NCBI GenBank assembly: GCA_044892505.1
Contig: CM097883.1
Location: forward strand, 166,656,001 to 166,720,000
DNA: 64,000 bases
DNA from: Schmidtea nova
Lineage: Eukaryota
Direction: 5' to 3'
This document shows positions 58,740 through 61,326 of the stretch, piece after piece. The position numbers and the translations under genes are program-made. The notes beneath the pieces are model-generated. The model was not told where the DNA came from. It was given only the letters and a program-made list of their open reading frames with translations, and did no database searches. Within the stretch, counting starts at the first letter, position 1; each line of letters opens with the position of its first letter.

Positions 58740-61215
58740 AAACTCGCAGCAGTGCGCTATCTAAAATGCTTCTCGAATAGGGAAGTGATGTATGAACTTA
58801 GGAGGGCTGACAACACTAGTCCTGGTATTGATGGATTACAATATCGTGACTTGTTGCGTCTAGATCCTGATGGTCATATACTTACTTTCTTGTTCAACAA
58901 GATCATTACAGAGAAGTCCATACCGGACAGTTGGAAGGTCTACAAAACCACTCTAATCCCGAAACCTAATAAAAATGATAAATATTCAGATATATCATCC
59001 TGGCGCCCGATTGCCTTGCTATCCGTCATCTACAAAGTTTTTGCGTCCTGTCTAGCCTCTCGTCTTGCACGCTGGATAAACTCTAATAAACTATTACATG
59101 TTGGACAAAAAGGTGGCTCCCAACATGAAGGTTGCGTTGAACACAACTCGATTCTGTCTGCTGCTCTGGAACATTCCAAATATAGTAAAAACTGTCCTCT
59201 TTCCATTGCTTGGCTCGACATAAAAGATGCTTTTGGTAGTGTCCCACATGATTACATGTGGTCCTTACTCCGATACACTGGGGTAAGTGAAGACTTTACC
59301 TCCATCTTAGAACTTTTATATTCTGACACAAGCTCCTTCTATAGTTGTGGTCCTATTCTGACACCAAAAATCCCAATTAAAAAGGGTGTCAAGCAAGGAT
59401 GTCCCATCTCCATGATTTTGTTTGCTTTGGCGATTAATCCTGTGTTGGAAGCTGTTTCCAGAACAGTCTGTGATGCTTTTGCTATTGGAGAATCATCTGT
59501 CAAAATTCTCGCGTATGCAGATGACATCGCAATTTTCGCTAAATCTCCTAATGACCTGCAAAAACTCATTAACACTGCTGTCACAACTGCAACCAATATA
59601 GGCTTTGAATATCGGCCAGAGAAATGTGCTTATCTGCAACTTCCTAGAATTCACATTGACAGTGAAATTTCAATCAATGGAGTTAAAATAAAAAAAACTA
59701 CTGTCTAATGAATTTTATCAATACCTAGGTGTGCCAGTTGGCGAAGGAACTGACCAAAGTCCTTACGACATTCTACTGGAGGCACTCAAAGACACCAAAA
59801 AACTTGCTGATTCGGATTTGCTTGGGTGGCAAAAACTTAAAGCTTACAAAGTATTTATCCATTCTCGCTTGATCTTCCCTTTTAGAACCCGTGAAATTAA
59901 AACTAGTGCACTTTCAAAATCTTATGATAATAAAAATCTTTCAGTTAACATCACTAGCCAGTTAAGGAAAACCTTAAGAAAAATGCTGCTTTTGCCTAAT
60001 CACTCGGAAGTGAGTTATTTCTACAATTCAACTGAAAATGGGGGAGCAAACTGTGTTGATCTCCTCGACGAATATCACACACAGACTATCACACACTTTT
60101 TTCGATTAATCACGTCACAGTGTGACTTTGCAAGGAAAATTAATCTTGACTCTTTAGCTTTTGTCACCAGTCCACGTCTTGGGATAAAAAATCCAACTCT
60201 TCAGGAAAGTCTTGAATGGCTCAATGGAAAAGAGTCTCTTTCTCCCCATTCTGGAAAGAAAACTCGATTTCAAAGAGCTAGGATTGCGATTGCTTTTTTT
60301 GAGAAGACGCACGACATCAACATCACGTTTACTATCACCAATAATGTACTATGTCTCTATATTAATACCAACGCACGTGGTACATGTATTGTAACTCCGG
60401 ACGAACGTGAGACCACGGCAAAAGTGTTGCACTTAGCGCTCAATGATTCATACTTGGTTAAATGGGAAAAAAGCTGTGTCTCAAACATTATCGCTTCAGC
60501 TGTAAAGCTTTCACCGACAGTAAACAAAGCTATCTATTGCAGTGATTTATCCGAGTTTGCTTGGAACTTTGTCCATAGAGCACGCACCAACACTCTTTCC
60601 ACCCTTGCAAAGCCTTATAATAGTGGAGAGAAAAGACTCTGTCGTCGATGTCATGATGAGGATGAAACCTCATCACATGTACTTCAATCGTGCAAAGTTC
60701 ATATGACTTTGGGCTCTGAACGACACGATGCTTGCCTTAAACTCATTTCTAATCATCTCCAACTTAATAAAAACCTAATTGTTGTTGTCAACCATGCCTG
60801 TTCACTTGTTCCGAGTTCTAAAGAGCGGGTGGATTTGCTGATAACTGATGTTCTTAGAAAAAGAATCTTCCTTGTTGACCTTAAATGTCCGAGTGATTCT
60901 TTATGTAACTTTGAGCGTGTAAATTTATTGAATTTGGAAAAATACAACTCTCTGAAAATCGATATTCAAACTGTCAAGCCAGACTTTAAAGTTGAACTCG
61001 ATACTTGCATTATAGGCGCTCTTGGCTCTTTTCCTGTAGAAACTCCTCAGATCCTTCAGAAAATTGGCATAAATAAAGGCCATGTGGCTGGGTTATTAAA
61101 AAAGTGTGCAATTAGTAATATTGCACACTCGGCAAAACGATGGTACTTCCACAAGAATGGTACACTGCCCATTTTCGAAAACGAGAAGCAATTCATTCGA
61201 ATTAACAACAACTAA
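58740..61215 (+). mobile_element. 5'-truncated RLE-type non-LTR retrotransposon (R2/NeSL/Utopia-like group)
   Basis: RT motifs SPGIDG, WRPIALL, WLDIKDAFGSVPH, GVKQGCP, AYADD and YLGV. CCHC CRRCHDEDETSSHVLQSC, then RHD and RVDL...LVDLK (PD-D/ExK). Single frameshift in the A-run at 59691-59698. Confidence 0.9.
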
Positions 61216-61326
61216 ACGAGTCTGAATTCAACCGATGTCGTTCGATCTCGGAAGTTAAGCAGGTTAAGGCCTCGTTAGTACTTGGATGGGTGACCGCCTG
61301 GGAATACGAGGTGCTGTGAAACTTTT
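61214..61326 (+). rRNA. 5S rRNA sequence, 5' end missing or degenerate
   Basis: Colinear without indels to eukaryotic 5S positions ~21-114: GATCTCGGAAGTTAAGC (box A), GTTAGTACTTGGATGGGTGACCGCCTGGGAATAC (IE/box C), compensatory GCCTCG/CGAGGT helix, TTTT terminator. Confidence 0.92.

Follow-up and report, generated by a model that had tools for sequence, protein, structure and literature searches.

When the reading frame of an RLE non-LTR retrotransposon ends directly against sequence colinear with 5S rRNA, the question arises of whether the element inserts into 5S genes, carries a piece of one, or lies beside it through an error of assembly. Such a locus occurs in Schmidtea nova (contig CM097883.1, positions 166,656,001 to 166,720,000), and we analysed it both within this stretch of 64,000 nucleotides, hereafter the window, and through its relatives elsewhere in the genome. 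The element belongs to a family, here called B, which carries the 5S-like sequence inside a subterminal repeat, and it has a sister family, A, which inserts into 5S genes.

Anatomy of the window copy and of family B

The window copy of family B lies within a hAT transposon (Table 1), as the initial annotation of this DNA had stated, and the proof is provided by empty copies of that hAT, in which 58763 is joined directly to 62251 (11/11). Since all of these skip exactly that stretch, the window copy is a 5′-truncated insertion running from 58764 to approximately 62250. It entered the hAT at a TA-rich site without target duplication and shares ~99% identity with other B copies. The heptamer TCGCAGC at 58744-58750, previously put forward as a weak candidate for a displaced 5S strand, is hAT DNA and is present in 11/11 of the empty copies. 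Minus-strand transposase pieces of a mariner-type transposon were also seen at 55939-56328 and 62877-63436, on both sides of the hAT, which thus appears to form the middle of a three-level nest of LINE in hAT in mariner.

The stop codon was found at 61213-61215, where it had been placed, and the annotated domains are likewise there, the RT being recognised by RVT_1 and the CCHC and RLE-type motifs beginning at 60640, 60826 and 60877; the RVD...DLK pair resembles the motif by which RLE families are usually described. The frame is not single as had been described: an extra A in the run at 59690-59697 splits it in two, the first part (58686-59708, from stop to stop) holding the RT and the second lying at 59692-61215. 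The window copy, 5′-truncated and frameshifted, is dead. An intact B copy (L073) has an ORF1 of ~800 aa with no Pfam match, a single in-frame stop and then an ORF2 of 1543 aa, in which a Ulp1 protease is followed by RT, CCHC and an RLE-type end. The Pfam scan of B ORF2 returned only C48, RVT_1 and a weak zf-RVT, with no exo/endo/phosphatase (APE-type) domain; the Peptidase_C48 match (23.6 bits, cut-off 20.7, in L073) is present too in most close homologues, and the CRRC...HVLQSC and RVD...DLK motifs were read from the sequence. ORF1 and ORF2 of families A and B (L073:3384, L062, L308-L312) lie in the same frame with one stop between them, and in all five families described here (A to E) the ORF2 frame starts with xxVP (mostly xCVP) without an ATG. 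Such a frame behind one stop suggests readthrough or reinitiation as the putative means of its translation.

A search for the junction between ORF2 and the 5S-like sequence found 940 candidates; 40 of these were scored and 30 copies examined, and the junction was identical in 30/30, so that it is not a misassembly. That the element has 'essentially no 3′ UTR' proved wrong, for 27/30 copies share ~930 further bases past the junction, ending near 62250-62262, whilst in 3/30 the match stops at 61583 and is followed by ORF1 of a second unit. The 3′ UTR is therefore ~1030 nt (~1 kb) long and consists, in order, of the 5S-like module, a T-run, an AT-rich stretch, the leader with ~28 ORF1 codons, and a unique tail. 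The 5S-like piece thus opens a subterminal repeat ~930 nt before the true 3′ end, and the suggestion of a 5S-carrying family was right as to the carrying, but not in making 5S the 3′ end. When compared with the 5S spacer and with the family A 5′ UTR the AT-rich stretch scored no better than shuffles (260/300 and 159/300 respectively), and B 62047-62244 has 71-72% identity to the family A 3′ terminus.

Copies of B are dispersed over three chromosomes, with 129 and 147 exact genome-wide matches to two B-specific 27-mers. Among 44 3′ ends, counted from 49 loci examined, none (0/44) had a 5S 14-mer within the next 200 nt; the flanks were unrelated, and 17/44 ends run into (TA)5 or longer. No B copies were seen within the 5S array stretches examined, and the 24 two-ended copies revealed no clear target motif or regular TSD, barring one 52-bp duplication. 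Two copies (L081 at C3:92.17 Mb and L102 at C3:66.82 Mb), one of them with a 52-bp duplication, differ in their 5′ ends yet sit at one and the same position within a repeated sequence, and from these B may retain some site preference.

Table 1. Features of the window copy of family B and of the transposon that it interrupts, in window coordinates.
Feature	Position	Strand	Remarks
Host hAT transposon, interrupted by the B copy	56329..62876	-	BED finger, DDE region, dimerisation domain; terminal inverted repeats at both ends
5′-truncated family B copy (RLE non-LTR retrotransposon)	58764..62250	+	Empty hAT copies join 58763 to 62251
ORF2, RT part	58764..59705	+	YADD at 59514; Pfam RVT_1, E 7.5e-29
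A-run, frameshift in window copy	59690..59697	+	One base more than the intact copy, by comparison with it
ORF2, C-terminal part	59692..61215	+	CCHC knuckle 60640-60693; RLE-type motif RVD 60826 and DLK 60877; stop 61213-61215
5S-like module	61204..61322	+	Rfam 5S match, 71 bits, E 5e-13
Core identical to host 5S nt 36-110 (75 nt)	61239..61313	+	Internal control region inside
Box A; IE; box C	61253-61267; 61270-61275; 61283-61300	+	Inside core; presumed positions, by common 5S numbering
T-run, predicted Pol III terminator	61323..61350	+	Length differs between copies
AT-rich stretch, part of repeat	61351..61463	+	No significant likeness to 5S spacer or A 5′ UTR
Copy of element's own 5′ end	61464..61583	+	Short leader, ATG 61498, ~28 ORF1 codons
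Unique 3′ UTR (~670 nt)	61584..62250	+	Ends in TTTTATTA, often then (TA)n

A sister family in 5S genes and its relatives

The alternative proposal, that of an RLE family targeting 5S genes, holds for family A elsewhere in the genome and not for B, and the cut lies at nt 21/22, not 10-13. A and B share 81% DNA identity over the window RT region and 79% ORF2 protein identity. The host 5S genes form a 318-bp tandem array at C2:8.12-8.22 Mb (Rfam score 112.7 bits, compared with 71 for the B module), in which ~8-kb gaps are occupied by the 7.6-kb element of family A. Within the array stretches examined, 12/12 A 3′ junctions begin at G22, beside 118 intact genes and in both 5S variants; genome-wide, 13 junctions lie at 5S nt 21/22. 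The second variant (A23G, 320-bp unit, other spacer), which A also uses, forms its own arrays (L182-L185; C3:153.49 Mb, C93). Nine full-length A copies have one identical 5′ junction and so probably derive from one amplified insertion; if a truncated copy with a duplication of 66 bp and two copies whose 5′ junctions differ are counted as well, there are at least four separate A insertions in 5S. An A 5′ end consisting of an element-encoded 5S-like stretch (nt 1-39) was considered and rejected, as two A copies have differing 5′ junctions. In addition, the first 1.9 kb of an internally deleted A copy (L067:482-2428) is joined to 5S nt 57, and element-5S fusions therefore do arise in the array.

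Family A is sequence-specific yet not 5S-exclusive. Among 30 A ends examined, 5S accounted for 7 and a second site for 23, this site being found at the inverted ends of a 14-15-kb repeat (1279 matches) which contain a near copy of 5S nt 11-25. With the insertion point written as a slash, the second site reads ATACTAAT[AC]TA/GATT and the 5S site ATACTAATCTG/GATT, A entering at the matching base. Fifty A junctions were counted at the look-alike site, where most of the counted junctions thus lie, and 3/30 sampled look-alike sites (L225-L254; G000) were occupied by A. The 14-15-kb repeat itself is possibly Polinton-like.

Three further families, C, D and E, were found by searching with a distant homologue. 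Junctions lay in tRNA genes in 14/14 cases for family D and 2/2 for family E; intact D and E copies (L283, L284, L294-L307) each use a site of their own, towards the 5′ part of several types of tRNA in tandem arrays. Family C (L278-L282, L285-L293) is dispersed with unrelated flanks, none of the 12 junctions shown, of 14 loci, being in tRNA or 5S. A terminal repeat was absent from C in 3/3 stretches, and the module is consequently not required for leaving the target. No 5S sequence was seen in C, D or E, and the tRNA-targeting outgroups have plain 3′ UTRs.

A quick tree, midpoint-rooted and with no named references, gave ((A,B),D) with SH-aLRT values of 100 and 99, and (C,E) outside. In quick trees without named Repbase references, one of them built from 58 of 62 chosen proteins, A and B fell within a supported clade of Ulp1-bearing proteins, above an unresolved base. 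As A and B are nested among tRNA-targeting families, Pol III-gene targeting together with a plain 3′ UTR is likely ancestral, and the B module derived. Family C, close to the tRNA-targeting E, is, as the tree places it, a second, independent loss of specificity. The 23 related loci from a metagenome scan were, at 26-37% identity, too distant to inform. On one metagenome contig (L256:10-203) a U2 snRNA gene adjoins a related RT, which is what a Utopia element would lead one to expect.

The 5S-like module and its probable renewal at the 5′ end

Several features first described at the 5S-like piece are borne out: it overlaps the stop codon (Rfam match 61204-61322), its boxes A and C are intact, lying with the IE inside a 75-nt stretch identical to host 5S, and the T terminator corresponds to the T-run at 61323-61350. 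The module agrees with host 5S at 104/119 positions, the mismatches being at nt 1, 2, 4, 7, 10, 12, 15, 17, 22, 28, 34, 111, 116, 118 and 119. It overlaps the last ORF2 codons with its first 12 nt, and no 5S spacer follows it directly. Compensatory pairing, which had also been claimed, could not be found, since of the 8 predicted 5S pairs altered in B 6 are broken, 2 are kept via a one-sided change and 0 by two-sided changes. Helix I is destroyed and helix II damaged, whilst nt 66-109 are unchanged and predicted to fold as in 5S.

All 15 differences fall outside the 75-nt core, a distribution obtained in 0/200000 random placements, or in 11/200000 when nt 1-12 are left out. Across 50 copies the 119-nt module contains 1 shared variant site (61259, in 6 copies, inside box A) as compared with 45 such sites over 869 nt in the remaining UTR parts (P ~0.02), a modest deficit in which the AT-rich comparison regions may inflate the contrast. 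At the level of sequence both the spared core and the few module variants fit selection; the core may also equal host 5S merely because this region evolves slowly in 5S. The module alters 4/15 bases of the family A target site, and 0 family A ends were found within B modules, an absence that lends weak support to immunity since the B copies are young.

The 5′ ends of family B were surveyed in the best 40 of 74 ORF1-bearing candidates. Fourteen of the 40 cluster at 61464-61499 (repeat coordinates), far above a uniform expectation (P ~4e-16), and we read this cluster as the RNA start. A further 24/40 reach upstream into the repeat, 8 stopping in the AT-rich part and 16 entering or crossing the 5S-like part, whilst 2/40 have no repeat at the 5′ end. 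Positions at or beyond 61208 upstream are reached in 14/40 copies, the longest extension going to 59319, and the whole or nearly whole 5S-like piece is regained upstream in only 14/40. Neither the unique 3′ tail nor a whole second unit or second ORF1 occurred in any extension, so that head-to-tail insertion and unequal crossing-over are disfavoured. Three loci that looked like trimers or multimers were examined, and two of these, at C2:204.58 Mb and C1:122.97 Mb, were rejected as true dimers and excluded from the dimer test, being segmental duplications with identical truncation points.

Minor variants of the 5′ repeat were then compared with the 3′ repeat of the same element in 15 of 28 elements (both repeats, extension past 61300), with 61323-61445 masked as homopolymer-rich. 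They recurred in 25/44 cases, with 2.4 expected and 0/2000 permutations as good; the 19/44 unshared variants are what later mutation would give, and for one element (E28) 7/25 of the other 3′ repeats were at least as close as its own. It is well supported by these comparisons that extensions matching their own 3′ repeat show the pattern expected of an RT jump from the RNA 5′ end to the internal repeat. The cycle which we regard as very probable has three steps: transcription of B would start 0-35 nt before the ORF1 ATG, TPRT would begin at the true 3′ end of B, and cDNA reaching the RNA 5′ end would jump, re-annealing to the internal repeat. The re-annealed cDNA would be extended across the AT-rich and 5S-like parts, and as much as ~1.9 kb into ORF2, before falling off, and the jump would in this way rebuild the 5S-like piece upstream of ORF1 in new copies.

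The whole arrangement is, in our judgement, probably best explained by a captured 5S fragment joined to a repeat of the element's own 5′ end, likely rebuilt in front by the jump, where its intact control region would act as an upstream promoter or chromatin module. It would have arisen where an A-like ancestor occupied a 5S array, via deletion or template switch, an origin that we favour with some reserve, given that the AT-rich part does not resemble the 5S spacer. By binding the rebuilt control region, TFIIIA and TFIIIC would supply the Pol III-gene neighbourhood that relatives get from their targets, and such a DNA-level upstream role, for which the conserved control region speaks, is plausible though slightly on the doubtful side of even. 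Because the T-run directly follows the module, Pol III itself would be unable to make the 8-kb RNA. We suggest only tentatively that B has packaged its ancestral landing site as a pseudo-LTR, in which the TFIIIA-bound region is rebuilt and the captured cut site has been mutated to escape A.

The same anatomy and the same jump would also be compatible with a 5S-like piece that is a neutral passenger of a 5S-array rearrangement, the promoter being internal to the leader. Family C disperses without any such module, 14/40 copies start at the leader with nothing upstream, and helix I is broken, all of which would suit a passenger; the differences nonetheless spare the 75-nt core over the control region, and fewer shared variants occur in the module than in the remaining UTR, and we consider a passenger rather unlikely. 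It is improbable that the piece acts as RNA, with 5S-like helices IV and V and loop E binding TFIIIA or uL18 and aiding RNP assembly, stability or nuclear import. Such a role would accord with the unchanged nt 66-109 and their predicted 5S-like fold, and with the presence of the module in the 3′ UTR of every copy with an ORF2 end as compared with the 5′ end of only some, but helix I is destroyed and helix II damaged, which sits poorly with what we take TFIIIA and uL18 to require for binding, and the position of the module within the repeat would be left unexplained.

The jump itself has a competitor, in which there is no jump at every cycle and the extensions are read-through transcripts of tandem source loci, or products of DNA-level gene conversion. 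For TART, read-through has been acknowledged as another explanation (PMC1636488), and a source locus with identical repeats would likewise yield shared variants. There are, however, several distinct variant sets, each matching at both element ends, which would need repeated homogenisation, and the extensions never include the unique 3′ tail or an entire second unit, so that we hold this account to be quite improbable. The reading of the junction at 61213-61216 as that of an element inserted at 5S nt 10-13 and brought into the hAT via 3′ read-through is very improbable indeed: the ORF2 stop does abut 5S-like sequence and a relative does target 5S, but the piece is element-encoded, with 15 differences, is unlike both host 5S variants and has no spacer behind it, the conserved B 3′ terminus lies ~930 nt further on, 0/44 B 3′ ends are in 5S, no B copy was seen in the array stretches examined, and the proposed 5′ strand is hAT DNA.

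Significance and relation to known systems

With family A, 5S rRNA genes join the targets of RLE elements. Its insertion point almost coincides with that of Mutsu, an unrelated element, and its two natural targets define a recognition motif of 15 bp. Gene insertion is a use for which intact site-specific RLE elements are sought, and the closely related families A, B, C, D and E, which range from tRNA and 5S targets to no fixed target, lend themselves to mapping the determinants of specificity. Family B gives population-level genomic support, in an unrelated clade, to a template jump that was merely proposed for TART, and would be the first protein-coding LINE, in the literature searched, to keep a Cassandra-style 5S control region in a self-renewing terminal repeat. 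Were the pseudo-LTR reading true, B would bring its Pol III-gene neighbourhood with it to any genomic location, and the two families would show a site-specific LINE before and after its passage to LTR-like replication. The endonuclease of Mutsu is APE, as is that of TART, a Drosophila telomeric element from a jockey-related clade.

Planarian LIN/R5 elements target 28S, tRNA-Arg and tRNA-Glu (LIN15_SM tRNA-Arg, LIN25_SM tRNA-Glu; PMC4640811), and the string '5S r' has 0 matches in the main text of that paper. These elements, of the NeSL clade, resemble ours in the order RT-CCHC-RLE with a Ulp1-like protease upstream, as in NeSL families, in the tRNA-gene insertion of the relatives D and E, in A-T-rich 3′ termini similar by eye, and in secondary insertion in other repeats, there Polinton sites (PMC4640811 S6 Fig for both). 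They differ in that the target of family A is 5S nt 21/22, and in that B has no fixed target and possesses a 5S-bearing subterminal repeat.

The zebrafish Mutsu, a 5S-specific LINE, inserts ~20 nt from the 5S 5′ end (PMC5340908), nearly the insertion point of family A. Mutsu is of L1/Tx1 type (Repbase L1-x_DR names, PMC5340908) whereas A uses RLE, and the 5S site has therefore been reached independently. Among the table rows of PMC10946416 that were covered, Mutsu and Rex3 are given as elements in 5S, and only SINEs and TRIMs as carriers of 5S. SINE3 and the 5S-derived SINEs (PMC10946416 Table 2) share with B a 5S-derived Pol III control region, but they are non-autonomous with 5S as the head, whilst in B the 5S piece is internal to an autonomous element. 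Cassandra has a 70-bp 5S core (bioRxiv 10.1101/2023.07.14.548913), and Cassandra and Ajax (the same preprint and PMC10946416) are like B in a ~70-nt box A-IE-box C core near to host 5S and in having a terminal repeat. Those are non-autonomous LTR/TRIM elements with the 5S promoter in the LTR and fixed LTR ends, whereas B is a protein-coding non-LTR element with intact copies, variable 5′ ends and a T-run directly behind the module. The papers searched, among them PMC8869645, PMC11202950 and PMC13586686, contained no RLE element targeting 5S and no autonomous LINE carrying 5S.

The closest counterpart to the repeat itself is that of TART, for which a subterminal repeat is described and a template jump to the 3′ repeat was proposed as extending the 5′ end (PMC1636488). 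The TART transcript starts just upstream of ORF1 (PMC1636488), as we infer for B, and by sequence B has such a subterminal repeat, the 5′ and 3′ repeats of the same element matching best. TART is telomeric and has no 5S piece, in contrast to B, which is an RLE element, dispersed, and has extensions into ORF2. Judged from its sequence, then, family B is an RLE family of R5/LIN-like character whose repeat resembles that of TART and bears 5S sequence, and its sister family targets 5S nt 21/22.
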